NCBI GenBank assembly: GCA_964523895.1
Contig: CAZGBJ010000007.1
Span: 23,000-86,999, forward strand
Origin: an uncultured Enterobacteriaceae bacterium
GTDB taxonomy: Bacteria; Pseudomonadota; Gammaproteobacteria; Eutrophobiales; Eutrophobiaceae
DNA length: 64,000 bases
Direction: 5' to 3'
Below, one piece after another: positions 949 to 36,098 of this stretch. Position numbers and translations under genes: made by a program. Every line of letters starts with the position of its first letter. The stretch's first letter is position 1. The notes beneath the pieces were generated by a model. That model did not search any database. It saw nothing but the letters and a program-made list of their open reading frames with translations, and was not told the origin of the DNA.

Positions 949-978
949 AATAGATTGGGTATTTAGAAGATAGATAAT

Positions 979-2040: not shown

Positions 2041-2045
2041 ATTTC

Positions 2046-3005
2046 ATGCAAAAGGATTCCCGTATATACGTTGCCGGTCATAACGGTTTGGTAGGAAGTG
2101 CCATTTGCCGAAAGCTAAAAGCCGATCATCATAATAATCTCATTGCACGGTCACACAAAGAACTTGATCTCTGCAATCAATTAGCAGTAGATGCGTTCTT
2201 TAAAGAAGAACAACCCGAATACGTGTTTCTTGCAGCAGCGGTTGTTGGTGGTATACATGCGAATGAAACACAGGCGGTAAGTTTTCTAAGAGATAATCTC
2301 CTGATACAAACACATGTAATTGAAGCGGCTTATAAACATGGTGTAAAAAAAATGGCTTTTTTAGGGTCTACCTGTATCTATCCACGAGATTGTCCGCAGC
2401 CAATTAAGGAAGAATACTTACTAACTGGACCGTTAGAAGAAACTAACCAATGGTATGCGATAGCCAAAATTTCCGGCATTAAACTATGCCAGGCTTACCG
2501 CAAAGAATATGGTTTTAATGCAATCTCATTAATGCCAACCAATCTTTATGGACCAAATGATAATTTTGATTTAATGGACTCGCATGTTTTACCTGCTTTA
2601 ATACGAAAGTTTCATGAAGGTAAAGTCAGCAATAAAGAAGCGGTAGAGATTTGGGGCACTGGTAATCCTTATCGAGAGTTTCTCTATATTGATGATCTGG
2701 CAGATGCTAGTTGCTTTCTTATGCAAAATTATGATGATGACTCAATTATTAATGTTGGAACAGGCCAGGATATTAGTATTAGAGAATTGGCTGAATTAAT
2801 TAAAAAAATAGTTGGTTATAAAGGAAAAATTATTTTTGATTCCTCCAGGCCAGATGGCACTCAAAAAAAATGTTGTGATGTTACAAAATTAAATAATTTA
2901 GGTTGGAAAAGTAAAACGACTTTGCAAGATGGGTTAAAAATAACTTACGATTGGTATATTAACAATTTACCCTCTGAAACTGTTGATATTAAAGCAATAT
3001 TATAA
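2046..3005 (+). CDS. fcl: GDP-L-fucose synthase (GDP-4-keto-6-deoxymannose 3,5-epimerase/4-reductase)
   Basis: Matches E. coli Fcl/WcaG: VAGHxGxVGSAI, YAIAKIAGIKLCxxY, MPTNLYGPxDNF, NVGTGxDxxIRELA. The start lies 6 nt after the gmd stop. Confidence 0.85.
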   Translation: MQKDSRIYVAGHNGLVGSAICRKLKADHHNNLIARSHKELDLCNQLAVDAFFKEEQPEYVFLAAAVVGGIHANETQAVSFLRDNLLIQTHVIEAAYKHGVKKMAFLGSTCIYPRDCPQPIKEEYLLTGPLEETNQWYAIAKISGIKLCQAYRKEYGFNAISLMPTNLYGPNDNFDLMDSHVLPALIRKFHEGKVSNKEAVEIWGTGNPYREFLYIDDLADASCFLMQNYDDDSIINVGTGQDISIRELAELIKKIVGYKGKIIFDSSRPDGTQKKCCDVTKLNNLGWKSKTTLQDGLKITYDWYINNLPSETVDIKAIL

Positions 3006-3010
3006 GTATC

Positions 3011-4006
3011 ATGAAAAATATTCTGGTAACGGGTGGTGCTGGCTATATCGGGTCCCATGCTTGTAAAGCGTTGGCAAAAGCAGGATATAAGCCAATCACG
3101 TTTGATAATCTGTCAACAGGCCATGAGCATGCTGTAAAATGGGGGCCGCTTGAAATTGGTGATATCCGAGATACTGGGAAGCTATCATTAGTATTCGAAC
3201 AGTATAAACCTGAAGCGGTTATTCATTTTGCCTCAAAGATTGTGGTGTCAGAGTCGGTCAAGGCTCCTGATGAATACTATGATAATAATGTTAACGGCAC
3301 CTTAAGTTTGCTTAATGTGATGAAAACGCATTCAGTTAACGCAATTGTATTTTCAAGTACCGCATCGGTATACGGTTATCCTGAATCAAATCCTATCAAC
3401 GAATCTCATCCGTTGAAGCCGATAAATCCTTATGGAAAAACGAAACTGGCGTGTGAATGGCTATTACAGGATTACCAGAGTGCTTATGAAATAAACTATG
3501 TTGCATTAAGGTATTTCAATGCCGCAGGTGCCGATGCAGAAGATGAGTTAGGTGAAGAGCATGAGCCTGAAACACATTTAATACCATTAATTTTAAAAGC
3601 GACAAAAGACAAAACGAGCGTTTCAATTTTTGGCGATGATTATAATACGCTCGATGGGACTTGTATCCGTGATTATATCCATGTTTCAGACTTAGCAGAT
3701 GCCCATATTAAAGCATTGGAATATTTATTTAAACATAACAAATCAGAAACATTTAATCTTGGAACAGGAAAAGGATATTCAGTCAGGCAAGTATTAAATA
3801 CGGTTAAAAAAATCACTTCGGAAGATATTAGTGAAATAAAATCCGATAGAAGGTCAGGTGACCCAGATAGTCTGGTTGCAAAATCAGATTTGGCACAAAA
3901 GACATTAGCGTGGCAACCAAAGTTAAGTGACATAGATAATATAATTAAAACAGCCTGGAAATGGCATATACAAAAGCCTGTTCTTGGCTTGGATGACAAG
4001 TCATGA
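3011..4006 (+). CDS. galE: UDP-glucose (or UDP-GlcNAc) 4-epimerase
   Basis: SDR fold with VTGGAGYIGSH, YxxxK (PYGKTK), RYFNAAGA and DGTCIRDYIHVxDLA, as in GalE. The stop overlaps the start of the next gene (ATGA at 4003-4006). Confidence 0.8.
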   Translation: MKNILVTGGAGYIGSHACKALAKAGYKPITFDNLSTGHEHAVKWGPLEIGDIRDTGKLSLVFEQYKPEAVIHFASKIVVSESVKAPDEYYDNNVNGTLSLLNVMKTHSVNAIVFSSTASVYGYPESNPINESHPLKPINPYGKTKLACEWLLQDYQSAYEINYVALRYFNAAGADAEDELGEEHEPETHLIPLILKATKDKTSVSIFGDDYNTLDGTCIRDYIHVSDLADAHIKALEYLFKHNKSETFNLGTGKGYSVRQVLNTVKKITSEDISEIKSDRRSGDPDSLVAKSDLAQKTLAWQPKLSDIDNIIKTAWKWHIQKPVLGLDDKS

Positions 4007-7000
4007 AAAGTAAACAAGTTGCCGCAATAGTTGGTATTGGCGGCATCTTTCCTGGTGCACGTGATCTGGATGAATTCTGGCAGAATATTTTGAATGGGAA
4101 AGAGTCTGCTATTGATGTAGGTGCTGATCGTTGGCGTTTAGAGCCTGATGAACTGTACTCTCCTGATGTGTCTCCCGATAAAATTAATTCCCGTCGTGCC
4201 TGTTTGATTCAAAATTTTGAATTTAATCCAGAAGGGTTGAATGTTGATGCTGAGTTATTGCAACGTCTTGACCCGATGTATCAAATTTTATTGCATGCAG
4301 GTCGAGATGCCTGGGCTGATGCAAAAACGGATGCTATTAATAAACAACGTGTTGGTATTGTCATCGGTAATATCGCACTTCCTACTGAATCATCCTCACA
4401 ACTTAGTGATGAAATATTTAAACAACTCTTTGAATCACAGTTAGGTATTAATTCAGACCAACAAAAAGAAAAAATAGAGCCTTTAAATAGATATGTTGCC
4501 GGGTTGCCGGGTGGCTTATTGGCAAAAGCTTTAGGTTTTGGTGCAGGTGCTTATACATTAGATGCGGCATGTTCTTCCTCACTTTATTCTCTTAAGTATG
4601 CCATTGATGAATTAGTTGCTGGTCGCACTGATGTTATGTTAGCTGGTGGTTTATCTCGGCCGGATTGTTTGTATACACAAATGGGTTTTTCTCAACTCAA
4701 TGCCATTTCAAAGTCAGGTCGTTGTTCACCGTTTGATAGCAAAGCTGATGGTCTTGTAGTAGGTGAGGGAGCAGGTATTTTTGTACTTAAGCGATTAAGC
4801 GATGCCATCGAACAAGATGATCATATCTATGCCACGATAGAAGGTATTGGCCTTTCAAATGATATCGAAGGCAATATCATGTCGCCAGATTCGGAAGGTC
4901 AAGGCCGTGCAATGCAATCGGCTTATGAAATGGCCGGGTGGAAACCAAATCAAGTACAACATATTGAATGTCATGGCACAGGAACACCTGTTGGTGATGG
5001 CGTTGAATTCACCTCATTAAAAAATCTATGGCAAAGTCATAAGGTAGAGGGTGAATGTGTTATTGGATCAGTAAAAAGTAATGTCGGTCACTTATTAACA
5101 GCTGCTGGTGCTGCGGCATTAATGAAAACATTGTTAGCAATGAAACACGGTGTGTTACCGCCAACAGCAAATTATGAAAACCCTTCCAGTAAAATAGATT
5201 TAACAAATAGTCCATTCAAAGTTCTGGATAAAGCTGAGACGTGGAGTGTAAAAAACAATAGTCCAAGACGTGCTGCGATTAGTGGTTTTGGATTTGGTGG
5301 TATCAATGCGCATGTTCTTTTACAAGAGTATTTGCCAGAAACAATTAAAACGTTACCTTTAACGAGTATCGAAACTACGCATTCTGATAAATGTGATATT
5401 GCTATTGTAGGAATGGAATCACGACTAGGACCATGGAATGAACAGAATGATTTCGATAACGCATTATTATTTGGTTCAAATAAAGATGTTACTCATCCAA
5501 ACAATTGGTGGGGAGCAGATGGCAAAGCGTATCAGGGATATCTAATTGATGAAGTTAAAGTGCCTTTAGGTCGCTATAGAATACCTCCGGCTGAATTAAA
5601 AGAGATGTTGCCGCAGCAATTGTTAATGCTTGAAGTTGCAGCTAATGCATTGGATGACGCGAAACTTTCCGAGCTATCAAAAGAACAACAATGTCGTACA
5701 GGTGTTTTTATCGGTATTGCACTTGATTTGAATACAACTAATTTCCATTTTCGCTGGATGCAAAAGAAATATGCAAGAGAATGGCTGGAGAGATTAGGCA
5801 TTGAATTAAATAATATTGAATTAGATGAATGGGTAGAAAACCTTAAACAGTCATTTGGTCCATCATTATCTGCAAATCGAACTATGGGTGCGTTAGGCGG
5901 TATTGTTGCCAGTCGAATTGCCCGTGCTTTCCGAGTTGGTGGTCCCGCTTTTACTATTTCTTCTGAAGAAACATCGGGGTTACGAGCACTGGAATCCGGT
6001 GTGCGTGCCTTGCAACAGCAAGAACTGGATCAGGTAATTATAGGTGCTGTTGATCTGGCTAGTGATATTAGAGCTGTTAAAGCTAATGCAGATCAGATTG
6101 ATACTATTGCTGATGGAGCTACTGCCTTTGTCTTGAAACGTCACGAAGATGCCGTGCGTGATGGCGATAATGTTTATGCATTAATAAAAGGTATTGGTGT
6201 TGCGTCGGCAGGAGGCTGTGATGCAAAGGTTGAAGAATCTGGAATGGTTGCTGCTATTCAAAATGCTTGTTCAGATGCACAATGTCATTTAGATGCTATT
6301 GATTTAGTAAGTCAATCTTCTGTGAATGATGAAGTTGATATTCCTGCATTAGAAAATGCAACTATTAATACTTTCTCGCTTGGTCATTCGGGTGCAGCAA
6401 ATGGCTTAATGAATGTAGCGAATACAGTGACGCTATTAAATCAGTGTCTTCTGCCAAATGAGAATAATTCAAATGCGCGTTACTGGTTAAAAGATCGAAT
6501 AAAAGGCCCGAGACAGAGTTTAGTAAACAGTACAAGTATTGACGGTGTGTGTGTCAGTGTTGTTTTACAACAAGCCCAGAATAAAACACAGGCTAATATT
6601 GGTCTTAAAAATGTTAACTCTAAATTATTTTCGTTGTCAGCCAAGAATAAAGAATTATTAATAAATAAAATTAAAGCGTTATCTTTTGTTGATGTTGTTG
6701 AAGATACTAAAGAAAAATTTCGGGCTGTTATTCTTGTTAATAACGAAAATGAATTAAATTTAGCTCGCGAAGAACTCATTGCTAGCATACAAAAAAATAA
6801 CTCAATTGATAATGGACGCTGTTTTTATTCAGCGTCTCCTTTAGCGAAAGAAGGGAAAGTTGCCTTTGTCTATCCCGGCTCAGGCAATCATTTCTTCGGT
6901 ATGGGACAAGAGTTAGGTGTTAGTTTTCCTGAAGTATTGGAAAATTTAGATCAAGAAAATGAAATGCTATCTTCACAATTTGCAAAAGGTCGCTTTTGGC

Positions 7001-10000
7001 AAAATCACCATCATGAGGATAATCCTGGTAAAGAATTAAGCCATGAAGAAGTTATTTTCGGACAAGTGTGGTTGGGTACTTTTGTTAGTGATGTTGTAAC
7101 CAGCTTTGACGTTAAACCTGATGCCGTTATTGGTTATAGTCTGGGTGAGACTGCCGGTTTTTTCTCAACACGGACATGGACGGCTCGTGATGAGATGTTA
7201 AAACGAATTCAACAAAGTACTTTGTTTACAGAAGAATTGGCCGGCCCTTGTAAATCTGTACAAAAAGCATGGGGTACGGATAAACCTGTTAATTGGGCAC
7301 TGGGTGTAATTAATACCAGTGCCGAAAAAGTTAAAACGGTATTAAAAAAGTATGAACATGTTTATTTATTAATTATTAATACACCAAATGAATGTGTTAT
7401 TGGTGGAGACAAAACCAAATTAAACAAGGCTGTTAAAGAACTTGCTGTACAATATCATCCCTTGTCAGGTGTAACGACGGTGCATTGTGAAGTCGCTAAG
7501 CCTGTTGAAAAAGCGTATCGGGATTTACATATTTTTGAAACGACGCCGGCAAAAGGCGTTACTTTTTATAGTGGAATACGTGGTGGTGCATACGAGGTAA
7601 CACAGAATTCAGCCGCTGACTCTATTCTGGACCAAGCATTGGCTCCTTTCGATTATACCAAGGTGATTAATAGTGCCTATGAAGATGGTGTACGTCTGTT
7701 TATTGAAATGGGGCCAGGTGGTTCTTGTGCAAGAATGATCGATCAGATCCTTGAAGAGAAATCGCATTATGCGAAAGCAGTTTGTGTTAAAGGACAAAAC
7801 AGCGTTGATAATGTATTGCAAACACTAGCTAGATTATATGTTGAAGGCGTGGATGTGGATTTTTCAAAATTACAAACTAATAATGTTAAACAAGGAAAGA
7901 AATATAATAGCTATATTAGTGTTAAAACAGGTGGCGATCCGTTTAAAGTTCCACAACTTCCTATGTCTAAATCCGATGTTGTTGAAGAGATACATATTGA
8001 AAAAAATAACGTCGCAACAGATGTAATGTCATTACCAATGACTGCAAATGGTGACTATCAACCAACAATCGAGCCAATAATTCAACAAATGCAGCTCGCT
8101 GAACGAGCTCGTTCTGAAGCACAAGAAGCATTTCTGAGAGTTAGTCAGGGTATGACCGAGACTTTGACTCAAGCTATTAATATGCAAATGCAACTTTTGG
8201 ATAATGGCAACATTGATTTATCGCAAGTAATAATTAATCAAGAACAGTCTGATAGAGAAGAAACTCAAAGTAAGGATTGTCTGTTTGATCGTGAACAATG
8301 TATGGAAATAGCAATCGGATCTATTAGAAAAGTACTAGGTTCAGCATTTGCGGATATTGATACTTATCCCACAAGAGTACGTTTGCCTGATGAACCTTTA
8401 ATGTTAGCTGATCGTATTATAAGTATCGAAGGTGAAGCTGATTCTTTAAAAAACAACCCCAATACAAATGGGCGCGTTATCACTGAACATGATGTCTTGC
8501 CGGGAGCCTGGTATCTGGATCAGGGACGTATACCAACCTGTATCGCTGTTGAAGCAGGACAAGCCGATTTATTTTTATCCGGCTATTTAGGTATTGATCA
8601 TATATCCAAAGGACTGGCGGTTTATCGTTTATTAGATGCAAAAATTACCTTTCATGGATCCTTACCGGAAGCAGGACAAACTATTCATTATGATATTCGT
8701 ATCGATGAGTTCTTCCGACAAGATGACACTTATCTATTTCGTTTTAATTTTGAAGGTAGCGTCGCCTGCACGGATGCAGGCGGTAGAGTCGAGTCTGGAA
8801 CAGAGACCGGGATTGGTAGACCATTACTAACCATGACAGAAGGTTGTGCCGGTTTCTTTACTCAACAAGAATTAGATGCAGGAAAAGGCATCGTCTTAAC
8901 TAATATTGAAAAACAAAAAGCTCAGGGAATATTTACAAGTGACTGGAATGAATTAGTTGCTATGCAGAATGAAAGTTATAACGATGAACAGTTAAATGCG
9001 TTACGGCAAGGTGATTTAGCAACTTGTTTTGGTGGGGCATTTAATAATATTGAATTGAATAATCCAGTGGGTTTACCCAGTGGTCGCATGACATTAGTTC
9101 ATCGTATTTTAAATCTTGATCCTAAAGGTGGTCGTTTTGGAATAGGTCAAATTACTGGTGAAGCAGACATTCATCCTGATGACTGGTTCTTAACTTGTCA
9201 CTTTGTTGATGATCGCGTGATGCCTGGAACATTAATGTATGAATGTTGTTTGCATACCCTGCGTGTTTATTTATTAGGCATGGGTTGGATAGGTGAAACA
9301 GATGAGTTTGTTTATGAACCGATTATTGGCGAAGTGAGTCAGTTGAAATGTCGAGGACAAGTCACGGAAGAAACTAAAGCCGTTCAATATGAAATTACAT
9401 TAAAAGAAATTGGCTATCGTAATGATGGAACACCTTATGTATTAGCGGATGCATTAATGTACGGCGATCACCGTGCCATAGTGCAAATGAAAAATATGTC
9501 TGTTCAATTAAGCGGCTTAAAACGCGATAAATTGGAAGCGCTTTGGGAAAAGCAAATTAATAATATGAGTGGTTCTGAAATGGAGATTTTCAGAGGTGCT
9601 CATACAAAACAAGTTTTATTCGATAACGATTCGATTTTAGCTTTTGCTATTGGTAAGCCTTCCGAAGCCTTTGGTGATAAATACAAAATATTTGATTCCG
9701 AACGCAAGATTGCACGTCTACCAGGGCCGCCATACAAATTTCTTGATCGAATCGTTTCTATTAAAGATTGTGAACAATGGGTATTGAAAGCCGGTGGCGT
9801 TATCGAAGCTGAATATGATGTCCCCGTAGATGAATGGTACTTTACTGAAGATAATCAACCTTATATGCCGTTTGCCGTATTGCTTGAAGTGGCTTTGCAA
9901 CCTTGTGGCTGGTTAGCGGCATATTTAGGTTCAGCATTAAGCAGTGATATTGATATTTCATTTAGAAATTTAGGTGGCAAGGCAACACAATACATAAAAG

Positions 10001-10704
10001 TAACTCCAGAGATTGGGACGCTCACTACAAAAGTAAAGATGACCAGTGTCTCGCAGTCTGGCGGTATGATTATTCAGACGTATGATTACGAAATGACGTC
10101 AGATCAAGGGTTGGTATATAAAGGCGATACTAATTTTGGTTTCTTTTCAAAACAGGCATTGGCTGATCAAATTGGTATTCGCGATGCCAAACCTTATAGT
10201 CCAACAGAATTAGAACAGTCTCGAAGCAAATCCTTTGTTTATTCAGTTGATGCACCGATGCCTGCGGATATGATGCGTATGGTCGATGAGATTAGTCACT
10301 ATGATCCTGAAGGTGGGCCAAATAACCTGGGTTTTATAGAAGGAAAAGCAAGTGTAAAACAAGATGCCTGGTTTTTTAAAGCCCATTTTTATGAAGATCC
10401 GGTTTGGCCAGGTTCGTTAGGATTAGAATCTTTCATGCAGTTATTAAAAGCTTTTGCATGGGAGCGATGGCAGGGTGAACTACGGATCGGCGATTTTTCT
10501 TTTGATAGTATGGCTTTGCAGCAGGTTCACCAATGGGTATACCGAGGTCAAATCCTGCCGATTGATGAAAAAGTGACGGTTCAGGCGGTCATTACCGAGA
10601 TTGATGATGAGTCCAAAACCATTAAAGCGGATGGTTTTTTGACTGTTGATGGACGAATTATCTATCAGATGAAGAACTTTGCGCTTAGAATAACCTCCCT
10701 ATGA
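4003..10704 (+). CDS. pfaC: PfaC-like PUFA/secondary-lipid synthase subunit. KS (Cys190, nt 4570), KS-beta/CLF-like domain without active Cys, acyltransferase (GYSLGE, nt 7132-7149), then two FabA-type dehydratase domains (CHFVDDRVMPG at nt 9196; AHFYEDPVWPG at nt 10381).
   Basis: DAACSSS, HGTGT and GHLLTAAG motifs of the KS. A second KS-like fold has ISSEETSG in place of the Cys motif. An AT GxSxG motif is present. Two HxxxD/MPG FabA-like cores are present. The size (2233 aa) and domain order fit PfaC with an inserted PfaB-like AT. Confidence 0.8.
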   Translation: MKSKQVAAIVGIGGIFPGARDLDEFWQNILNGKESAIDVGADRWRLEPDELYSPDVSPDKINSRRACLIQNFEFNPEGLNVDAELLQRLDPMYQILLHAGRDAWADAKTDAINKQRVGIVIGNIALPTESSSQLSDEIFKQLFESQLGINSDQQKEKIEPLNRYVAGLPGGLLAKALGFGAGAYTLDAACSSSLYSLKYAIDELVAGRTDVMLAGGLSRPDCLYTQMGFSQLNAISKSGRCSPFDSKADGLVVGEGAGIFVLKRLSDAIEQDDHIYATIEGIGLSNDIEGNIMSPDSEGQGRAMQSAYEMAGWKPNQVQHIECHGTGTPVGDGVEFTSLKNLWQSHKVEGECVIGSVKSNVGHLLTAAGAAALMKTLLAMKHGVLPPTANYENPSSKIDLTNSPFKVLDKAETWSVKNNSPRRAAISGFGFGGINAHVLLQEYLPETIKTLPLTSIETTHSDKCDIAIVGMESRLGPWNEQNDFDNALLFGSNKDVTHPNNWWGADGKAYQGYLIDEVKVPLGRYRIPPAELKEMLPQQLLMLEVAANALDDAKLSELSKEQQCRTGVFIGIALDLNTTNFHFRWMQKKYAREWLERLGIELNNIELDEWVENLKQSFGPSLSANRTMGALGGIVASRIARAFRVGGPAFTISSEETSGLRALESGVRALQQQELDQVIIGAVDLASDIRAVKANADQIDTIADGATAFVLKRHEDAVRDGDNVYALIKGIGVASAGGCDAKVEESGMVAAIQNACSDAQCHLDAIDLVSQSSVNDEVDIPALENATINTFSLGHSGAANGLMNVANTVTLLNQCLLPNENNSNARYWLKDRIKGPRQSLVNSTSIDGVCVSVVLQQAQNKTQANIGLKNVNSKLFSLSAKNKELLINKIKALSFVDVVEDTKEKFRAVILVNNENELNLAREELIASIQKNNSIDNGRCFYSASPLAKEGKVAFVYPGSGNHFFGMGQELGVSFPEVLENLDQENEMLSSQFAKGRFWQNHHHEDNPGKELSHEEVIFGQVWLGTFVSDVVTSFDVKPDAVIGYSLGETAGFFSTRTWTARDEMLKRIQQSTLFTEELAGPCKSVQKAWGTDKPVNWALGVINTSAEKVKTVLKKYEHVYLLIINTPNECVIGGDKTKLNKAVKELAVQYHPLSGVTTVHCEVAKPVEKAYRDLHIFETTPAKGVTFYSGIRGGAYEVTQNSAADSILDQALAPFDYTKVINSAYEDGVRLFIEMGPGGSCARMIDQILEEKSHYAKAVCVKGQNSVDNVLQTLARLYVEGVDVDFSKLQTNNVKQGKKYNSYISVKTGGDPFKVPQLPMSKSDVVEEIHIEKNNVATDVMSLPMTANGDYQPTIEPIIQQMQLAERARSEAQEAFLRVSQGMTETLTQAINMQMQLLDNGNIDLSQVIINQEQSDREETQSKDCLFDREQCMEIAIGSIRKVLGSAFADIDTYPTRVRLPDEPLMLADRIISIEGEADSLKNNPNTNGRVITEHDVLPGAWYLDQGRIPTCIAVEAGQADLFLSGYLGIDHISKGLAVYRLLDAKITFHGSLPEAGQTIHYDIRIDEFFRQDDTYLFRFNFEGSVACTDAGGRVESGTETGIGRPLLTMTEGCAGFFTQQELDAGKGIVLTNIEKQKAQGIFTSDWNELVAMQNESYNDEQLNALRQGDLATCFGGAFNNIELNNPVGLPSGRMTLVHRILNLDPKGGRFGIGQITGEADIHPDDWFLTCHFVDDRVMPGTLMYECCLHTLRVYLLGMGWIGETDEFVYEPIIGEVSQLKCRGQVTEETKAVQYEITLKEIGYRNDGTPYVLADALMYGDHRAIVQMKNMSVQLSGLKRDKLEALWEKQINNMSGSEMEIFRGAHTKQVLFDNDSILAFAIGKPSEAFGDKYKIFDSERKIARLPGPPYKFLDRIVSIKDCEQWVLKAGGVIEAEYDVPVDEWYFTEDNQPYMPFAVLLEVALQPCGWLAAYLGSALSSDIDISFRNLGGKATQYIKVTPEIGTLTTKVKMTSVSQSGGMIIQTYDYEMTSDQGLVYKGDTNFGFFSKQALADQIGIRDAKPYSPTELEQSRSKSFVYSVDAPMPADMMRMVDEISHYDPEGGPNNLGFIEGKASVKQDAWFFKAHFYEDPVWPGSLGLESFMQLLKAFAWERWQGELRIGDFSFDSMALQQVHQWVYRGQILPIDEKVTVQAVITEIDDESKTIKADGFLTVDGRIIYQMKNFALRITSL

Positions 10705-11900
10705 ATTACTCCCGCGTACAAATGGAATCTATCGGTTATGAATTGCCACCGGTAGTGATTACTTCAGAAGATCTCGAGCATCGCCTAATGCCGATGTACG
10801 ACGCATTGCATATTGCTCCCGGTCAATTACAAGCCTTAACAGGTATTAGTGAACGTCGTTGGTGGGAAGAAGGACATGTACTATCCGATGGTGCAGCGGC
10901 AGCGGCTCGCAAAGCTCTGGAACAATCAAATGTTGAGGCAAAAGATATCGAAGCACTTGTTTATACGGGTGTTTGTCGGGAAAATTTTGAACCAGCTACA
11001 GCCTGTTCTGTTGCCGCCCAATTAGGCATTGGTGACGAAACTAATATTTATGACATATCCAACGCTTGTCTGGGCGTAATGAATGGTATTATTGATATTG
11101 CTAATCGTATCGAATTAAAACAAATCCGTGCCGGCATGGTGGTTTCCTGTGAAAGCTCTCGTGAAATCGTTGAGATTATGATTGAGCGTATGTTGCAGGA
11201 TAAAAGTATGGGTATGTTCACTAATTCATTGGCGACATTAACCGGTGGTTCAGGTGCTGCAGCAGTATTACTGACGGATGGTTCTTTCGATAATAAGGAG
11301 ACGCATCGCTTGGTTGGTGGCGCTAATCAATCTGCACCTGAATTTCATAAATTATGCCGTTGGGGTGTTACATTAACACCGCAGGCGATTGGTGATTTAA
11401 TGTTTTCACCGGATAAATTACTGGCTGCAATTGATCAGGTGATGGAGCCAGAAGTATTACCTAGCGCGATCAAGGAAGTGATGACCAGTGATAAATTGCC
11501 ACCGGCATTAACGAGTATAATGCCTTCAGAAAAGTTGCCGGCGGCATTATCTGAATTTATGTCTACCGATTCTGTATCAGTACTAAAGCACGGTGCAATA
11601 CTGGGTGTTAAAACCTGGGGTAATTTTCTGGGTAAAATGGGTTGGGCCAGAGACCAGGTTGATAAAGTCATTTGTCATCAGGTCGGTGAAGGTCATCGTG
11701 ATACCATATTAAAAGAACTGGGTATCGCACCCGAAAAAGATTTCAGTACTTATAAATATCTCGGCAATATCGGTACTGTTTCTGTTCCTTTAACAGCAGC
11801 CATTGCTGAACAAAGGCAGTTTCTTAAGAAAGGTGATCGCGTTAGTTTTCTTGGCATTGGTAGTGGTTTGAATTGCATGATGCTTGGTTGGGAATGGTAA
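10701..11900 (+). CDS. oleA: OleA, FabH-like thiolase for head-to-head Claisen condensation of acyl-CoAs
   Basis: KAS III/thiolase fold with ISNACLG (Cys123, nt 11067). The C-terminus LGIGSGLNCMMLGWEW and KLCRWG closely resemble Xanthomonas/Stenotrophomonas OleA (GIGSGLNC). It is followed by oleB-C-D homologs in canonical order. It carries a roughly 40-aa triple-repeat insertion not present in canonical OleA. Confidence 0.8.
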   Translation: MNYSRVQMESIGYELPPVVITSEDLEHRLMPMYDALHIAPGQLQALTGISERRWWEEGHVLSDGAAAAARKALEQSNVEAKDIEALVYTGVCRENFEPATACSVAAQLGIGDETNIYDISNACLGVMNGIIDIANRIELKQIRAGMVVSCESSREIVEIMIERMLQDKSMGMFTNSLATLTGGSGAAAVLLTDGSFDNKETHRLVGGANQSAPEFHKLCRWGVTLTPQAIGDLMFSPDKLLAAIDQVMEPEVLPSAIKEVMTSDKLPPALTSIMPSEKLPAALSEFMSTDSVSVLKHGAILGVKTWGNFLGKMGWARDQVDKVICHQVGEGHRDTILKELGIAPEKDFSTYKYLGNIGTVSVPLTAAIAEQRQFLKKGDRVSFLGIGSGLNCMMLGWEW

Positions 11901-11924
11901 TATTCTCCTGATCTAAATTTTATT

Positions 11925-12815
11925 ATGTCTTTTCCGGATTATCCTGATAACAATTCTTGTTATATGTCTGTTAATAACAGGCGACTACATTATCTCGAAG
12001 GAGGCAATGAACATCCTGAAACCGTTGTGATGTTACACGGGAATCCAAGTTGGTCATTTTATTATCGTCATCTGTTTACTGCATTAATCGATAAATATCA
12101 TTGTATTGTTCCTGACCATATTGGTATGGGTTTATCGGATAAGCCTGCTAGTAGTGAATATGACTTTACGCTAAAGCAACGCGTTGATGATCTTGATACG
12201 CTACTGTCCAGTTTGAATGTAGATAATAATTTAACGCTAATTGTCCATGATTGGGGCGGCATGATTGGTATGGCATACGCTACACGATATCCCGACAAGA
12301 TAAGACGATTAGTCATTTCCAATACAGCAGGTTTTCATATCCCGCAGGGAAAACAAATTCCCTGGCAATTAAAACTAAGTCGCACGCCATTAATTGGTTC
12401 TTTGTTGATTCAAGGACTCAATGCTTTTTGTCGAGGTGGTGTGATTCAATGTGTTACGCGAAAACCAATGAACAAAGATGTCAAAGATGCTTATTTAGCG
12501 CCTTATGATAGTTGGTCGAATAGATTATCTGTTTTACGATTTGTTGAAGATATTCCGTTAGATGAAGAGCATGTTACTTATGATGTGGTTGATAATGTTG
12601 ACAATAATTTACAACAGTTTTCAAGTTTACCAATGCTCATTTGCTGGGGATTAAATGACTTTGTCTTCGATCAACATTATCTAGCTGAATGGAAAAAACG
12701 TATGCCTATTGCGGAATACCATGAGTTTGATGCCGGACATTATTTGCTAGAAGATGCGAGTGATGAGGTTATTCCGATTATTAAACAATTTTTAGAAAAA
12801 CATATAATTAAATAA
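11925..12815 (+). CDS. oleB: OleB, alpha/beta-hydrolase (haloalkane dehalogenase-like) beta-lactone decarboxylase
   Basis: HGNPSWSFYYR and VHDWGG nucleophile-elbow region of the haloalkane-dehalogenase-like alpha/beta hydrolase family. Position between oleA and oleC. Confidence 0.75.
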   Translation: MSFPDYPDNNSCYMSVNNRRLHYLEGGNEHPETVVMLHGNPSWSFYYRHLFTALIDKYHCIVPDHIGMGLSDKPASSEYDFTLKQRVDDLDTLLSSLNVDNNLTLIVHDWGGMIGMAYATRYPDKIRRLVISNTAGFHIPQGKQIPWQLKLSRTPLIGSLLIQGLNAFCRGGVIQCVTRKPMNKDVKDAYLAPYDSWSNRLSVLRFVEDIPLDEEHVTYDVVDNVDNNLQQFSSLPMLICWGLNDFVFDQHYLAEWKKRMPIAEYHEFDAGHYLLEDASDEVIPIIKQFLEKHIIK

Positions 12816-12926
12816 TTATTTTTATTGCCACGGAGCACACAGAGGCCACGGAGAAAAGAAAAATGAAACTATTTAGTAAAAAAAATATGTATATCTCTGT
12901 GTTCTCTGTGGCTAATATTTAAAATT

Positions 12927-14582
12927 ATGATTACGGCAAATATTGCATCCCATTTGCCAGTAATGGCTGAGAAACAGCCCGAAACGTATGCGGTTGTTAA
13001 ACAGAGCAAGAACAAATCAAAAAAACCTTCATATGAAATTGCTTATACCTATAAGCAACTGGATGACGTTAGCAATCTTATTGCTAATGGTTTAGAAGCA
13101 TACGGAGTAAAAAAAGGAACGAGAACAGTACTTATGGTTAAACCGGGGCTTGATTTTTTTGCGTTGGTTTTTGCTTTGTTTAAACTTGAAGCGGTTCTGG
13201 TTGCTGTTGATCCGGGTATGGGAATTAAAAATCTGGGTAAATGTCTTAAAGAAGCTGAGCCTGAAGCCTTTATAGGCAACAGCACAGCGCATCTAGCTAG
13301 AATTACATTATCGTGGTCAAAGAATACAATAGATAAAACAGTTTTAACCGGGAGTAATATTTTATTAAATCAATTTTTAACAGACCTTAACAAGATAAAA
13401 TTGTTTGGAAAGCAGTCTGAAAGAAATAAAATAGAAACAAAGGCTGAAGATGTCGCTGCGATTCTTTTTACCAGCGGTAGTACCGGTGTTCCTAAAGGCG
13501 TTGTTTATACACATGCTAATTTTACGGCGCAAGTTGAAGCGTTAAAAAAACTTTATAATATTCAGCCAGGTGAAGTTGATCTTGCAACATTTCCATTGTT
13601 TGCCTTATTTGCTCCAGCGATGGGAATGACATCAATTATTCCACAGATGGATTTTACTAAACCCGGTACAGTTGATCCAACAAGAATTATCGATGCCGTG
13701 ACACAATATAAATGCACCAATATGTTTGGTTCGCCTGCCTTGCTTAATCGAGTGGGAAAATGGAGTGAGCATAAGGAAATTAAACTATCATCATTGAAAC
13801 GCGTATTGTCAGCCGGTGCACCTGTGTCTTCAACTGTGTTGCAACGCTTTAAAAAAATATTGAATGAAGATGTACAGATTTTTACACCCTACGGTGCAAC
13901 GGAATCATTACCAGTCAGTTCTATAGGCAGTGATGTGATTATTAATGAAACATCTAAGCTGACGGCTAAAGGAAAAGGCGTATGCGTTGGCAAAGCTGTT
14001 ACAGGCCTGGATGTGAAAATTATAAAGATTAATGACAATGTTATTCCAGAATGGAAAGATGAACTTGAATCACCAGTTAATGAAATAGGTGAAATTTGTG
14101 TTAAAGGTCCACAGGTGACACGAAATTATTTTAATCGTAATGATGCAACCGGGCTAGCTAAGATAAGAACAGATAATGGTTTTTACCACCGTATGGGTGA
14201 TGTAGGTTATCTTGATTGGCAAGATAGACTTTGGTTTTGTGGCCGTAAGAGTCAACGTGTCATTATTGAAACAGAAACAATGTTTACAATATGCTGTGAA
14301 GCAATATTTAATTCGCATCCTTTTGTTTTTCGATCAGCTTTAGTTGGAGCGCAAGCGAATAAAAAAACAATCCCTGTGATTTGTATTGAACTTGAGCCTG
14401 AACATAAATGGTTTAATAAAGAAGAATTTAAAAAAGAGTTGTTGTCTTTAGCTTCTAACTCTGAACTTACAAAGAATATCAAACATATTCTTTTTCATTC
14501 TGGGTTCCCGGTAGATATTAGACATAATGCCAAAATTGGTCGGGAAAAACTGACGATATGGGCTAGTAAAGAAGTCACATGA
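12927..14582 (+). CDS. oleC: OleC, AMP-dependent synthetase/ligase family (beta-lactone synthetase)
   Basis: Adenylate-forming enzyme motifs TSGSTGxPKG (FTSGSTGVPKGV) and YGATE. Position in the oleABCD order. Confidence 0.75.
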   Translation: MITANIASHLPVMAEKQPETYAVVKQSKNKSKKPSYEIAYTYKQLDDVSNLIANGLEAYGVKKGTRTVLMVKPGLDFFALVFALFKLEAVLVAVDPGMGIKNLGKCLKEAEPEAFIGNSTAHLARITLSWSKNTIDKTVLTGSNILLNQFLTDLNKIKLFGKQSERNKIETKAEDVAAILFTSGSTGVPKGVVYTHANFTAQVEALKKLYNIQPGEVDLATFPLFALFAPAMGMTSIIPQMDFTKPGTVDPTRIIDAVTQYKCTNMFGSPALLNRVGKWSEHKEIKLSSLKRVLSAGAPVSSTVLQRFKKILNEDVQIFTPYGATESLPVSSIGSDVIINETSKLTAKGKGVCVGKAVTGLDVKIIKINDNVIPEWKDELESPVNEIGEICVKGPQVTRNYFNRNDATGLAKIRTDNGFYHRMGDVGYLDWQDRLWFCGRKSQRVIIETETMFTICCEAIFNSHPFVFRSALVGAQANKKTIPVICIELEPEHKWFNKEEFKKELLSLASNSELTKNIKHILFHSGFPVDIRHNAKIGREKLTIWASKEVT

Positions 14583-15577
14583 AAGCCCTGGTGACTGGAG
14601 GTGGCGGTTTTCTTGGCAGTGCTATTGTAAAAGCATTACTGGATAAAGGTAACTCTGTCAGGGCTATACAAAGGGGAGACTATCCCTTTTTAAAAGAGCT
14701 GGGTGCTGAAGCTATTCAGGGTGATTTGACCAGACCTGACGATATTAATGCGGCTGCCAGCGGATGTGATGTTATCTTTCATGTGGCAGCAAAAGCTGGT
14801 GTATGGGGTGATTATAACGATTATTATCAAGCTAATGTGGTCGCTACTAAAAACGTATTACAGGCTTGTCGGGTCAATAATGTTAATAATCTGATATATA
14901 CCAGTACACCCAGCGTTGTCTTCAATGGTGAAAATGAAGAAGGCATTAACGAGTCAGCGCCTTATGTAAAAAACTGTTTTAATGCCTATCAAAAAACCAA
15001 AGCAGAAGCAGAGCAGCTTGTTATCAATGCAAATAATACTGATTTAAAAACAGTGTCATTAAGACCGCATTTAATCTGGGGTCCGGGTGATCCTCATCTT
15101 GCGCCAAGAATTATTAGCCGGGCGAAAACAGGTCGTTTAAGACTAGTAGGCAATAAAAATAATAAAGTTGATTCCTGTTATATAGATAATGCAGTTCAGG
15201 CTCATTTGTTAGCGGCTGATTGTTTGCAGTCAAATAAAGTTTGCGCGGGGAAAATATATTTTATTAGCAATGATGAACCGATTAGCATGGCTGATTTAAT
15301 TAATAAAATTTTAACTGCCGCTGATTTGCCGTCAGTCAATAAAAATTTACCTGAAAGAGCAGCCTATATCATTGGCTATGTGCTGGAAAAAAGTTATACA
15401 TTATTAAATATAAATAACGAACCTGTAATGACACGATTTGTTGCCCGGCAACTTTCGACGTCACATTGGTTTGACCTGTCAGCTGCAAAACAGGATCTAG
15501 GTTATCAAGCGCAGGTCAGTATTGATGAAGGAATGAAATGCCTTAAAGAATCACTTGCTTCTGATGTTTCTAAATGA
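14579..15577 (+). CDS. oleD: OleD, NAD(P)H-dependent reductase of the 3-beta-hydroxysteroid dehydrogenase/epimerase-dehydratase family
   Basis: VTGGGGFLGSAIV Rossmann motif with YxxxK (YQKTK), 3beta-HSD/NAD-epimerase family. ATGA overlap with oleC and with the downstream PPTase. Confidence 0.75.
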   Translation: MKALVTGGGGFLGSAIVKALLDKGNSVRAIQRGDYPFLKELGAEAIQGDLTRPDDINAAASGCDVIFHVAAKAGVWGDYNDYYQANVVATKNVLQACRVNNVNNLIYTSTPSVVFNGENEEGINESAPYVKNCFNAYQKTKAEAEQLVINANNTDLKTVSLRPHLIWGPGDPHLAPRIISRAKTGRLRLVGNKNNKVDSCYIDNAVQAHLLAADCLQSNKVCAGKIYFISNDEPISMADLINKILTAADLPSVNKNLPERAAYIIGYVLEKSYTLLNINNEPVMTRFVARQLSTSHWFDLSAAKQDLGYQAQVSIDEGMKCLKESLASDVSK

Positions 15578-16296
15578 ATAACGTTAATAAATTACTGGAA
15601 ACCAAGATTGAATTGTCAGATAAGAAAATACACGTTTTTTTATTGGAACTTGATTTGTTTAATGGTGATGATTTATATGTTTATTTGCCAGAAGATGAAG
15701 CTAAAAGGGCTGCTAGATTAAAGATAGAGGAAAAAAAGAATCAATTTGTAATCAGTAGGGGGATACTCAGATTATTGTTGTCAAATTGTTTGCAGAAAAA
15801 ACCAGAGAAAATAAATTTCTTATATGGGCAGCATTGCAAACCCGCTATCGAAGATAAGTATAATAATAAATCAGTTGAATTCAATGTGTCCCATTCTGGG
15901 GGTTATGCATTAATAGCAATAACGTTAGATAATAAAGTGGGCGTTGATATTGAAAAAATAAATCATGAAATAGATTATCAATCGTTATCTGATCGATTTT
16001 TCAGTGGCAAAGAAAATGATGAATTAAGAAGTTTGGATGAAAATGAGAAATTAGATGCTTTTTATCGGGCATGGGTAAGAAAGGAATCTTTCATAAAAGC
16101 AACAGGGAAAGGTATTACTTTTGGTCTTGATAGTTTTTCTGTTTCGTTGGCTGAAAGTAGAAAATCCAGTATTGAAGTTATTTCTGAAAATTTAATAAAT
16201 GAACAATGGTATTGCTACGATTTAAATAATCTGGATGACTATAAACTGGCGTTAACAAGTTGTAGCAAGGAACAGGAACTTATTATTTTCCGGTAA
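15574..16296 (+). CDS. pfaE: Sfp-type 4-prime-phosphopantetheinyl transferase (PfaE-like)
   Basis: PPTase motifs FNVSHSG, GVDIE and WxRKESFIKATGKG. Terminal gene of the pfa/ole operon. Confidence 0.75.
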   Translation: MNNVNKLLETKIELSDKKIHVFLLELDLFNGDDLYVYLPEDEAKRAARLKIEEKKNQFVISRGILRLLLSNCLQKKPEKINFLYGQHCKPAIEDKYNNKSVEFNVSHSGGYALIAITLDNKVGVDIEKINHEIDYQSLSDRFFSGKENDELRSLDENEKLDAFYRAWVRKESFIKATGKGITFGLDSFSVSLAESRKSSIEVISENLINEQWYCYDLNNLDDYKLALTSCSKEQELIIFR

Positions 16297-26346: not shown

Positions 26347-26422
26347 GGGGCTATAGCTCAGCTGGGAGAGCGCTTGCGTGGCACGCAAGAGGTCGGCGGT
26401 TCGATCCCGCCTAGCTCCACCA
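26347..26422 (+). tRNA. tRNA-Ala (anticodon GGC)
   Basis: 76-nt sequence GGGGCTATAGCTCAGCTGGGAGAGCGC...GGC...TCGATCCCGCCTAGCTCCACCA is near-identical to E. coli tRNA-Ala(GGC). Ends in encoded CCA. Confidence 0.9.
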
Positions 26423-26467
26423 ATATATATTTTAAGTAGGCTGTTTTTCAGGACATATACAAATATT

Positions 26468-26543
26468 GTCCCCATCGTCTAGAGGCCTAGGACACTGCCC
26501 TTTCACGGCGGCAACAGGGGTTCGAATCCCCTTGGGGACGCCA
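26468..26543 (+). tRNA. tRNA-Glu (anticodon UUC)
   Basis: GTCCCCATCGTCTAGAGGCCTAGGACACTGCCCTTTCACGGCGGCAACAGGGGTTCGAATCCCCTTGGGGACGCCA matches the E. coli tRNA-Glu scaffold. Ends in CCA. Confidence 0.9.
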
Positions 26544-31935: not shown

Positions 31936-32436
31936 ATGAAGTTCTGGTATTTAATCCATTCAAAACCTAAAGATGAAAAAGTAGCTCAGGAAAACCTTGA
32001 GAGGCAGGGTTATGAAACCTATTTGCCGTTAATTCTTGGTAGAGCAAAAAAGCGTGGTAAAACAATAAAATCGATTCAACCGATGTTCCCTAGATATCTA
32101 TTCATTCATTTGAGCGATCAAACTGATGACTGGGGGCCTATTCGTTCAACATTGGGTGTCTCTAGTTTGATCCGATTTGGTTTGACGCCAGCAAGAGTAC
32201 CGGAGGCGCTAATAAATTCATTAAAGAATAATGAAAATATTCAAGGAATTCATGAGCTTCCGACTAAACCTTTATCTGCTGGAGATAAATTACTCATCGT
32301 TGAAGGTCCATTTGAGGGATATGAAGCGACCTTATTTAGCCAAAAATCAGATGATAGAGTTATCGTACTATTAAAAATTGCTGAAAATTATGTAAAAGTT
32401 AAGTTAGAACAATCACTTATAGAGCCATTAAGCTAA
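31936..32436 (+). CDS. rfaH: RfaH-type operon-specific transcription antiterminator (NusG paralog)
   Basis: MKFWYLIHSKPKDEKVAQENLERQGYETYLPL matches the RfaH N-terminal NGN domain pattern (WYLLxxKxxxExxAxxxLxRQ) and the size is 166 aa. A canonical ops site is present 0.8 kb downstream. Confidence 0.7.
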   Translation: MKFWYLIHSKPKDEKVAQENLERQGYETYLPLILGRAKKRGKTIKSIQPMFPRYLFIHLSDQTDDWGPIRSTLGVSSLIRFGLTPARVPEALINSLKNNENIQGIHELPTKPLSAGDKLLIVEGPFEGYEATLFSQKSDDRVIVLLKIAENYVKVKLEQSLIEPLS

Positions 32437-32520
32437 TATTATTTTGTCTAATGAAGGAGTGTAACTTCTTCATTTTTTAAAAATCTACTATATTTTTCAC
32501 TATATCTAGTAGTTCATTTC

Positions 32521-33174
32521 ATGAACGCTCTGGTATATACTGTTCAGATAATGAACAATCAGCAAAAAGAAGATACCGCAACGCTAGAAATTCTACAAAC
32601 TATTGAAAATAAAGGGAATTTTACGCAGCGACATCTGGCTGATCAACTTGGCGTTGCTCTAGGTTTAGCAAATTCTTATCTTAAGCGATGTGTCCATAAA
32701 GGTTTGGTCAAAATTCATCAAGCGCCAGCGAACCGATATCTCTATTACCTAACACCAAAAGGCTTTGCTGAAAAAAGTCGATTAACCACCGAATATCTAA
32801 GTAGCTCATTTAACTTCTATCGTCGTGCAAGTGCTTCGTGCTCTGATGTGTTCGAGCAATGTCATGAGCTTGGACATCATAAGGTGTTGTTATGTGGATT
32901 ATCTGAACTTGCAGAGATTGCGAGTCTTAGAGCGAGAGAACAAGGTATCGATATTGTCGGTACGCTTACTCTAGATTCAAAGTCAAAAATGTTTCTTGGC
33001 TTGCCCGTTTGGAATTCATTTGATTTGTTATCCGATTTTGATGCCTGTGTGGTTACCGAAGTGGCAGAACCGAAAAAACTTATTGAATATATGAGTACAC
33101 AAGTTGACTCAGATATTGTTTTTGTACCTGATATTTTAGGAATAAAAAAAGAATCACAAAATAACGCAGCCTGA
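32521..33174 (+). CDS. Putative winged-helix transcriptional regulator with an uncharacterised C-terminal domain
   Basis: The N-terminal 70 aa resemble a MarR-like wHTH (LEILQTIENKGNFTQRHLADQLGVALGLANSYLKRCVHKGLV). The rest is unassigned. Confidence 0.35.
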   Translation: MNALVYTVQIMNNQQKEDTATLEILQTIENKGNFTQRHLADQLGVALGLANSYLKRCVHKGLVKIHQAPANRYLYYLTPKGFAEKSRLTTEYLSSSFNFYRRASASCSDVFEQCHELGHHKVLLCGLSELAEIASLRAREQGIDIVGTLTLDSKSKMFLGLPVWNSFDLLSDFDACVVTEVAEPKKLIEYMSTQVDSDIVFVPDILGIKKESQNNAA

Positions 33175-33214
33175 TTTTTTATATATTAAAAATCAGGCTG
33201 CGTTATTTTGTGAT
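33153..33214. terminator. Exceptionally long perfect hairpin (27-bp stem, 8-nt AT loop) overlapping the stop codon at 33172. Candidate bidirectional terminator or insulator.
   Basis: ATCACAAAATAACGCAGCCTGATTTTT (33153-33179) is the exact reverse complement of AAAAATCAGGCTGCGTTATTTTGTGAT (33188-33214). Flanked by A- and T-runs. Confidence 0.6.
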
Positions 33215-33223
33215 TTATTAAAA

Positions 33224-33262
33224 CACCTAGTGTCAACTTTGACACTAGGTGGCGGTAGCGTG
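33224..33262 (+). promoter_or_regulatory. JUMPstart-like element. A 12-13-bp perfect hairpin (33224-33251) abuts an exact ops site GGCGGTAGCGTG (33251-33262), 64 nt upstream of the ABC transporter start.
   Basis: The 12-mer equals the E. coli ops consensus recognised by RfaH, and rfaH is encoded just upstream. Hairpin is CACCTAGTGTCAA/TTGACACTAGGTG. Confidence 0.7.
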
Positions 33263-33325
33263 CATAAAGCCACATCTAGTTGGTATGAAATATAGATAAT
33301 GTCAAAAAAATATTCTTAAGTACAA

Positions 33326-36098
<2,773 letters not shown>

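Follow-up and report, generated by a model that had tools for sequence, protein, structure and literature searches.

The locus described here lies in a 64,000-nt stretch of contig CAZGBJ010000007.1 from an uncultured gammaproteobacterium (referred to as the window; all coordinates are positions within it), and centers on an operon polarity suppressor (ops) element and on the RfaH-like protein that would read it. The gene for this protein, a NusG paralog of 166 aa, is rfaH (31936-32436). It is followed by a gene for a winged helix-turn-helix (wHTH) regulator with a MarR-like N-terminal domain and a small Rossmann-like C-terminal domain (32551-33174), by a perfect, terminator-like hairpin of 29 bp with an 8-nt loop, which we call the giant hairpin (33151-33216; arms 33151-33179 and 33188-33216), by a shorter, JUMPstart-like RNA stem-loop (33224-33251), and by the ops element itself, GGCGGTAGCGTG (33251-33262). 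Behind these, a tract of at least 30 kb for glycan biosynthesis and export extends from 33326 to 63776. All these features are on the + strand. In known systems, bound RfaH shuts out NusG and prevents Rho-dependent polarity, and it ties the ribosome to the polymerase. With a probability of roughly 70%, we regard the arrangement as an RfaH-dependent processivity (operon polarity suppressor) switch that heads a variable surface-glycan cluster; as with all functional statements on the locus, this judgment rests on sequence and comparison.

Of the ops element, the 12-nt signal GGCGGTAGnnTG lies on the non-template strand, ahead of a long operon, and is the sole match in the window with at most one mismatch; the exact 12-mer reported in an earlier note on this DNA is indeed there. 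By chance, 0.05 such matches would be expected in the window, and 5 of 100 shuffled sequences contained at least one. In known systems, ops is found in the leaders of long RfaH-dependent operons, where polymerase pauses at U11 (PMC6391919, PMC11001881, PMC5995543); in the non-template strand, the element forms a small hairpin, and RfaH reads its G5 and T6 (PMC5995543, PMC11001881, PMC6391919). A second copy of its 8-nt core, GGCGGTAG, at 8779-8790 (GGCGGTAGAGTC) inside an open reading frame (ORF) for a PfaC-like protein, was discarded as a chance match (0.4 expected), since it continues as AGTC and is not preceded by a hairpin.

For the comparison, about 190 related loci were considered. A homology search with the wHTH protein returned 4304 homologs, of which almost all belong to uncultured Gammaproteobacteria from marine or sediment sources, and a profile scan for this protein, limited to one genome per species, yielded 80 loci. 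The ops core follows the wHTH stop codon on the same strand in 66 of these 80, at a median distance of 78 nt; the distance is at most 100 nt in 54 of the 66 and at most 60 nt in 20. Together with the window, the 66 ops-bearing genome loci make up the set of 67 that was aligned at ops. Here, GGCGGTAGC is invariant and 61 of the 67 sequences equal the E. coli 12-mer in full, while the identity of the wHTH proteins across the ops-bearing loci is 50-88%. In 42 of the 80 loci, the wHTH gene is immediately preceded by rfaH, and in 11 more rfaH is found farther upstream. The order of rfaH, wHTH gene, stem-loop, ops and glycan genes thus appears as a conserved cassette, which recurs in many uncultured Gammaproteobacteria, and the retention of ops behind the wHTH gene in 66 of 80 genomes supports the earlier proposal of RfaH-dependent antitermination of the glycan operon.

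The stem-loop abuts ops directly. Its perfect 13-nt arms, CACCTAGTGTCAA at 33224-33236 and TTGACACTAGGTG at 33239-33251, form an inverted repeat, and the final G of the 3' arm is at the same time G1 of ops. Folded as RNA, the element pairs over 12 bp around a loop of 4 nt (centroid -20.6 kcal/mol, z = -5.2; minimum free energy -22.5 kcal/mol for the 43-nt stretch that holds it). In the alignment of 67 loci, a stem-loop ends 0-2 nt ahead of ops G1, with the family consensus (A/G)UGCGGAGC-loop-GCUCUGCA(U/G) GGCGGUAGCGUG CCUGAA. Its stem positions are found in standard pairs in 82.8% of cases, compared to 33-56% when the partners are slid by 1-3 columns; 10 of 12 stem pairs show double-sided changes, and the covariation score of the stem was matched by none of 500 shuffles. 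In the window, the base of the conserved stem has been swapped by compensatory changes, which results in a longer, perfect stem. A covariance model built from the ops-anchored alignment (R1) finds a single site in the window, at 48.8 bits, and another at 41.9 bits in the related locus L083, which was not part of the training set.

Wobble pairs are common in this stem on the + strand, with pair 25-45 being G·U in 44 of the 67 sequences. Read from the opposite strand, such pairs would become C·A mismatches, so that the structure is to be assigned to the sense-strand RNA running toward the operon, and covariation and sense-strand G·U pairs together indicate that the stem-loop is transcribed. This bears on TTGACA at 33239-33244, which is present where the earlier note had seen it and forms part of the 3' arm of the stem. 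As an exact -35 consensus within a perfect palindrome, it invites a reading of the region as DNA, with the 13-bp palindrome as the binding site of a dimeric regulator, TTGACA as the -35 box and ops as an untranscribed spacer. We consider this very unlikely. The recognition helix of the wHTH protein is invariant, yet the stem undergoes compensatory changes, its frequent G·U pairs fit + strand RNA and not duplex DNA, and the palindrome that is actually conserved with the wHTH gene is a different one, GTTCA-N5-TGAAC. Moreover, the would-be -10 position reads GCATAA in the window and a conserved CCTGAA in the family. A -35 role for TTGACA was rejected, as neither a -10 box nor a promoter was called, and the evidence that the stem-loop is transcribed argues against it as well. 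Finally, a role as mere spacer would leave the conservation of the 12-mer in 61 of 67 loci unexplained.

If the stem-loop and ops are transcribed, the question is from where. A promoter scan of the + strand between 31800 and 33500 called no promoter-like site, and one with a -10 box ending 4-80 nt upstream of the ops hairpin was found in only 3 of the 67 loci. The conserved promoter signals lie at the start of the wHTH gene. This start is almost certainly ATG 32551, and the ORF start at 32521 is probably wrong; residues M11 and N12 are nearly invariant among the homologs. In 67 of 81 loci, a hexamer TATAGT, TATACT or TATAAT occupies positions -15 to -10 relative to the start codon, which places the -10 hexamer of the window, TATACT (32536-32541, + strand), in a register that is fixed in its relatives. 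In GC-rich loci, TTGAC(C) is found 17 nt upstream of the -10 box, and a promoter-like site was called at the wHTH start in 42 of 80 loci.

The same start codon is overlaid by a palindrome. GTTCA-N4-[AG]TGAAC occupies positions -9 to +6 in 80 of 81 loci, and in the window its copy, GTTCAGATAATGAAC (32542-32556), spans the predicted transcription start and the ATG as a putative autoregulatory operator. A second copy 30 bp upstream is found in 34 of 81 loci, including the window, where GTTCATTTCATGAAC (32512-32526) covers the -35 region of the wHTH promoter and may serve as a second operator. GTTCA-N5-TGAAC occurs twice in the 64-kb window, both times at this promoter, with 0.07 copies expected. 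None of the 81 loci has a Shine-Dalgarno motif before the wHTH start. From the fixed -10 register, the palindrome over the start codon and the missing Shine-Dalgarno motif, we infer that the wHTH mRNA is leaderless or nearly so and starts from a sigma-70-type promoter, which the wHTH protein probably gates through the GTTCA-N5-TGAAC palindromes. In the window as a whole, AGGA, GGAG or GAGG occurs within 18 nt upstream of the start in 8 of 51 + strand ORFs, and the host apparently seldom uses Shine-Dalgarno motifs.

As the hairpin appears to be transcribed and the wHTH promoter is the sole conserved one upstream of it, the transcripts on which ops is read most likely begin at the wHTH start. 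The earlier note had likewise placed the real promoter further upstream, reading through the hairpin; the conserved promoter at the wHTH start and the near absence of promoter-like sites beside the ops hairpin point the same way.

The cassette is not the only setting in which the hairpin-ops unit occurs. We scanned metagenome contigs with a DNA pattern that comprises the 3' arm of the stem and ops (CTGCAKGGCGGTAGCGTGCC) and counted 98 hits for which 300 nt or more of sequence upstream was available. The wHTH gene stands directly upstream in 74 of them. Of the other 24, 23 have rfaH upstream of ops, ending 46-214 nt before it in the full-length cases measured. In this second architecture (L085-L204, for example L088, L104, L129 and L173), a distant rfaH with 30-38% identity is followed by the hairpin and ops, with no wHTH gene between. 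In both architectures, that with the wHTH gene and that lacking it, the hairpin-ops unit is hence linked to rfaH in cis.

Several observations weigh against an RfaH-dependent switch at this locus; they concern the distribution of ops, the identity of the stem-loop, the sequence of the RfaH protein and the giant hairpin. To begin with, the ops core was not found after the wHTH gene in 14 of the 80 genome loci. Some of these end at a contig edge, and L033, a complete 2.85-Mb chromosome assembled from a metagenome, has a one-base variant, AGCGGTAGCGTG (G1 to A), behind a conserved hairpin (4661-4726), which the exact 8-mer search missed and model R1 recovered.

The JUMPstart model of Rfam, RF01707 (gathering score 35 bits), has no match in the window at its gathering score and none at E <= 10 in 33050-33400, and 20 related loci gave none either; all that Rfam returned from these three sets of scans were tRNAs and spurious miRNA and sRNA matches on the giant hairpin. 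As a positive control, the E. coli waaQ leader scored 55.2 bits. In layout, the window agrees with JUMPstart (Hobbs and Reeves, 1994; Weinberg et al., 2010, PMC2864571): a stem-loop lies 0-2 nt before ops G1, immediately 5' of the element and ahead of polysaccharide genes, and the JUMPstart stem of E. coli waaQ, which ends 1 nt before ops, sits at the same place as the stem of the window family. The structures themselves differ. The Rfam model, which gives 55 bits on E. coli, describes a 5-bp stem, cUGGu/gCCAg, with the loop AGCUGUAA, whereas the window family has a stem of 8-13 bp, (A/G)UGCGGNNN...NNNCUGCA(U/G), with a variable loop. Conversely, model R1 gives the E. coli JUMPstart only 16 bits, and these come from ops alone. 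As neither model recognizes the other's element, we regard the stem-loop as analogous to JUMPstart, or perhaps as a homologous but diverged form. The earlier description of a JUMPstart-like 13-bp hairpin holds for the perfect repeat and for the layout.

The RfaH protein likewise departs from its E. coli counterpart. Its assignment, which the earlier note had made for a NusG paralog 0.8 kb upstream of ops, is confirmed by the NCBIfam equivalog model TIGR01955, whose cut-off of 144.5 bits it exceeds by a small margin (146.3 bits), and by the Pfam NusG NGN domain PF02357 (77 bits). The enterobacterial RfaH model NF006534 stays under its cut-off (115.2 against 124 bits), as do the NusG, UpxY and LoaP models (UpxY with 84 against 100 bits). 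The closest solved relative is E. coli RfaH (2OUG, 1e-22), and the alignment with it has no gaps over the first 100 residues. In E. coli, ops is contacted directly by K10, H20, R23 and R73, and alanine at K10, H20 or R73 abolishes recruitment (PMC5995543). The window protein belongs to the same NGN-KOW family and keeps K10, R23 and Q24, but has N at position 20, L at 73 and Q at 48 as well as R at 70, so that two of the four contact residues K10, H20, R23 and R73 are absent. This holds for its clade. In a survey of 51 RfaH homologs linked to a wHTH gene (in L001-L080), K10 and Q24 are invariant and R23 is kept in 49, while position 20 is N in 47 and R73 occurs in none (L, I or F in 49, V or T in 2). 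Instead, R70 is invariant where E. coli has N70, within the motif D(N/D)WxPIRST(L/I)GV. In the RfaH clade without the wHTH gene, most proteins have R70 plus R73, with R73 in 16 of 18. According to Wang et al. (PMC7593976), R73 is a late arrival in RfaH evolution.

The residues of autoinhibition give a mixed picture. I93, F130 and R138 are kept in the window protein; E48, which forms the autoinhibitory salt bridge with R138, is replaced by Q and is not conserved in the wHTH-linked clade. In an AlphaFold2 model built on an alignment of 35 sequences, the NGN domain is confident, while the C-terminal domain (predicted local distance difference test, pLDDT, 33-57) has short strands and no alpha-hairpin. 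A 2026 preprint describes monomorphic RfaH homologs that are encoded beside their targets, lack some of the ops-binding residues and act independently of ops (PMC13015549). The missing H20, R73 and E48, this precedent and the absence of a predicted alpha-helical C-terminal domain would all suit a view in which the ops match is a meaningless coincidence or a relic, and RfaH acts elsewhere or, as a monomorphic protein in cis, without ops. We find this view hardly credible. Matches to ops are expected far too rarely, at 0.05 per window, the 12-mer and its position are kept in 61-66 loci over a wide divergence, and an identical hairpin-ops unit directly follows rfaH in the second architecture. The perfect conservation of ops at these loci argues that the wHTH-linked RfaH clade does use it.

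The giant hairpin, lastly, is a stable, terminator-like structure (-44 kcal/mol with a U-rich tail) between the conserved promoter and ops. As RfaH loads downstream of it, at ops, it cannot suppress this hairpin, and the flux from the wHTH promoter to ops could be low, and an unrecognized promoter could exist. Either only some of the polymerases would reach ops, or translation would aid read-through.

The hairpin folds with -44.2 kcal/mol (z = -15.4) and contains the wHTH stop codon, TGA (33172-33174), in its 5' arm, 5 nt from the loop. The earlier note had correctly described a perfect stem-loop over this stop codon; with 29 bp instead of 27, the stem is slightly longer than stated there. Its core, CGCAGCCUGA.../...UCAGGCUGCG, is G+C-rich and is followed by UUAUUUUGUGAUUU, with a complementary A-rich run before it. 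A pattern scan marked it as terminator-like on both strands, with at least 20 pairs, 7 of them G-C, and the tail TTGTGATT. It hence combines a G+C stem-loop with a U-rich tract in the manner of an intrinsic terminator, with a stem far longer than typical, and its predicted shape is that of a bidirectional intrinsic terminator.

The giant hairpin is narrowly distributed. JGI samples 3300009703 and 3300011013 contain sequence identical to this DNA, from the source population. The hairpin is identical in L081 and L082, metagenome contigs of the same population; L083, which is 89% identical, has an imperfect 16-bp stem at the same place without any indels, and in L008 the stem is absent. Among the relatives, structure at z < -3 was seen around the wHTH stop in 6 of 65 loci (median z of -0.9) and, as a control, in coding sequence in 0 of 65; the most extreme value, z = -14.9, is that of the window. 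Given this weak enrichment, a stop-codon hairpin was rejected as a conserved feature of the family and is considered lineage-specific. An origin as a repeated or mobile element was rejected, too, because the window has no other copy of the arm sequence and the alignment to the relatives is free of indels.

Two alternatives start from this hairpin. In the first, it ends the wHTH transcript as an efficient intrinsic terminator, and the operon has an unrecognized promoter of its own within the hairpin or just behind it, at about 33190-33224, which would make the stem-loop and ops a promoter-proximal leader like that of E. coli waaQ. The terminator-like shape on both strands and the U-rich tail speak for this, as does E. 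coli, where the annotated 5' end of rirA (L084, 2239) lies about 18 nt upstream of JUMPstart (2221-2183); furthermore, weak promoters are hard to recognize in an AT-rich genome. Yet the scan called no site here, the giant hairpin and ops are separated by just 35 nt, of which 28 are occupied by the stem-loop, and in the relatives there is little room for a promoter and little sign of one: stop-to-ops distances of at most 60 nt are found in 20 of 66 loci, and promoter-like sites there in 3 of 67. The giant hairpin, moreover, is lineage-specific. We therefore judge a separate operon promoter to be unlikely.

In the second alternative, the giant hairpin is neither terminator nor attenuator, but chiefly an element of RNA processing or stability, such as a site for RNase III or a protective stem at the 3' end, which uncouples the levels of the wHTH and operon mRNAs; its perfection may then have arisen through template-switch correction of a quasi-palindrome. 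A stem of 29 perfect bp is long enough for RNase III. It also exceeds typical terminator stems by far, and the imperfect 16-bp version at the same place in L083, without indels, is in keeping with such a history. The G+C core, with the U-rich tract after it and the A-rich run before it, nevertheless has the canonical shape of a bidirectional terminator, and we hold a role chiefly in processing or stability to be doubtful.

The switch that we favor would then operate as follows. Transcription would start at the TATACT promoter, about 2-5 nt before ATG 32551, and produce a leaderless wHTH mRNA, with the wHTH protein probably gating this promoter. The polymerase would cross the wHTH gene and, in the lineage of the window, the 29-bp terminator-like hairpin. 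A ribosome that terminates at the wHTH stop would cover the 5' arm of this hairpin while the polymerase crosses the U-tract, so that translation of the wHTH gene may be required for read-through. The nascent stem-loop of 12-13 bp would come next. Measured to U11, the 3' side of its stem lies 13 nt away from the outermost well-conserved pair (columns 22-48), or 12 and 11 nt if the optional outer pairs are included. This resembles the his-type, hairpin-stabilized pause in that the 3' base of an RNA stem lies 11-13 nt upstream of the 3' end at the pause, which for ops is U11 (PMC11001881); the E. coli ops pause, by contrast, is biochemically distinct from the his pause, being pre-translocated and prone to backtracking (PMC11001881, PMC6391919). 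The stem-loop thus has the geometry of a hairpin that stabilizes a pause or limits backtracking, and might extend the time window for loading: if it prolongs or fixes the ops pause, even scarce RfaH could load. RfaH would bind the ops hairpin of the non-template strand in the paused complex, stay on the polymerase and suppress Rho-dependent polarity over at least 30 kb.

The operon that would profit from this begins with GTG 33326, 63 nt after the end of ops; the earlier note had assumed an ATG at 64 nt, which is close in spacing but names a different start codon. The GTG has no Shine-Dalgarno motif, which might be taken as a sign of ribosome recruitment by RfaH; with such motifs in only 8 of 51 ORFs of the window, its absence is uninformative. 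As claimed in the earlier note, the operon extends over at least 30 kb: from 33326 to 63776, all ORFs are co-directional on the + strand with short gaps, and no convincing + strand terminators were found within this tract, where terminator-like sites on that strand are fewer than in shuffled sequence. By NCBIfam and Pfam, its genes encode a PglK/MsbA-like ABC exporter, nonulosonic-acid enzymes of the PseB, PseC, GNAT, NeuB and cytidylyltransferase types, deoxy-sugar dehydratases, epimerases, amino-, acetyl- and methyltransferases, and a GT2 glycosyltransferase. In the relatives, the genes after ops vary from locus to locus but belong to glycan systems in every case, with an ABC exporter, a GDP-mannose dehydratase, Wzx, NeuB and ManC among them.

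The wHTH protein itself is recognized by the Pfam model HTH_24 (PF13412; 30.1 bits against 21.9), whereas the Pfam MarR models stay below their cut-offs and TIGR04176 (MarR_EPS), which covers residues 17-102 only, reaches 67.4 bits against a cut-off of 88. The AlphaFold2 model has a pLDDT of 79.9 and shows, at residues ~121-200, a small alpha/beta domain of Rossmann-like type in which Cys and Gly residues are conserved. This C-terminal domain matches no Pfam family, and a sequence-profile search of the PDB gave nothing relevant. With the entire model, Foldseek returned only wHTH-plus-Rossmann methyltransferases, at a TM-score of ~0.3.

On the 5' side, rfaH starts 9 nt past a gene for APS kinase, which is itself preceded by two genes for UDP-sugar dehydrogenases. 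Directly 3' of rfaH, an AT-rich, weak terminator-like hairpin (32450-32480, + strand) with an 11-bp stem (-10.7 kcal/mol, z = -2.9) is followed by UUUU and may act as a weak terminator between rfaH and the wHTH promoter; its G-C pairs are too few for the consensus scan to call it. Farther away, genes for tRNA-Ala(GGC) and tRNA-Glu(UUC) lie at 26347-26543, 5.4 kb upstream of rfaH. The same pair is found at 654-859 in L011, 2.6 kb upstream of rfaH, at a locus whose wHTH protein is 57% identical, and the glycan locus may occupy a conserved, tRNA-flanked site. The PfaC-like ORF mentioned above (4003-10704) encodes a polyunsaturated fatty acid or polyketide synthase of 2233 aa, with two ketosynthase and 2-3 FabA-like dehydratase domains, within a co-directional block at 157-16296.

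Compared to known systems, the locus is closest to the RfaH-ops pairs of E. coli and Salmonella (waaQ, rfb, hly, kps and tra leaders), with which it shares an identical 12-nt ops that precedes, on the sense strand, a long co-directional operon for envelope glycans. It differs from them in that ops follows a complete regulator gene instead of lying in a promoter-proximal untranslated leader. It further resembles Bacteroides UpxY/UpxZ, LoaP and TaA, where a NusG paralog and a second small regulator head the presumed target polysaccharide locus (PMC7593976). In contrast to UpxY and LoaP, the window protein passes the cut-off for RfaH only and has the canonical ops of Proteobacteria as its presumed recruitment site; in contrast to UpxY/UpxZ, its partner is a predicted DNA-binding wHTH protein and not an inhibitor of the UpxZ type. 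The RfaH cluster CL4, as described in the available part of Wang et al. (PMC7593976), also has rfaH beside an HTH regulator and cell-envelope genes. From this part of the text, the identity of CL4 with the window clade could not be confirmed, and its account of such loci includes no ops, hairpin, leaderless promoter or palindromic operator.

This is not a new kind of mechanism, but a widespread, ordinary variant of a known anti-termination system. Work on RfaH and ops has been almost entirely enterobacterial, with rfaH acting in trans and ops placed in a short untranslated leader. What goes beyond this textbook picture is the predicted cassette of rfaH, a leaderless wHTH gene, hairpin and ops, with no apparent promoter beside ops and with altered ops-reading residues. 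We also consider it possible, though less likely than not, that a large environmental group of Gammaproteobacteria uses a whole gene as the leader of its RfaH-dependent glycan operons: transcription would first cover a wHTH gene that is leaderless and autoregulated, ops would be read only by polymerases that pass it (and, in the lineage of the window, also pass a translation-sensitive terminator at its stop codon), and a cis-encoded RfaH would read G5 and T6 of ops through R70 and N20 in place of R73 and H20. If true, this would contradict the assumption that every RfaH protein relies on one shared mode of recognition.

The locus represents a widespread environmental arrangement, in which the identical 12-mer is hard-wired beside its factor, with a different, covarying hairpin and a small wHTH gene before it. 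It thereby raises the questions of whether the hairpin tunes the ops pause, whether R70 stands in for R73, and whether a promoter gated by a transcription factor and an elongation switch act in series on hypervariable surface-glycan loci. In practical terms, the hairpin followed by GGCGGTAGCGTG and CCUGAA gives annotators of metagenome-assembled genomes a simple DNA marker of the 5' edge of these clusters.

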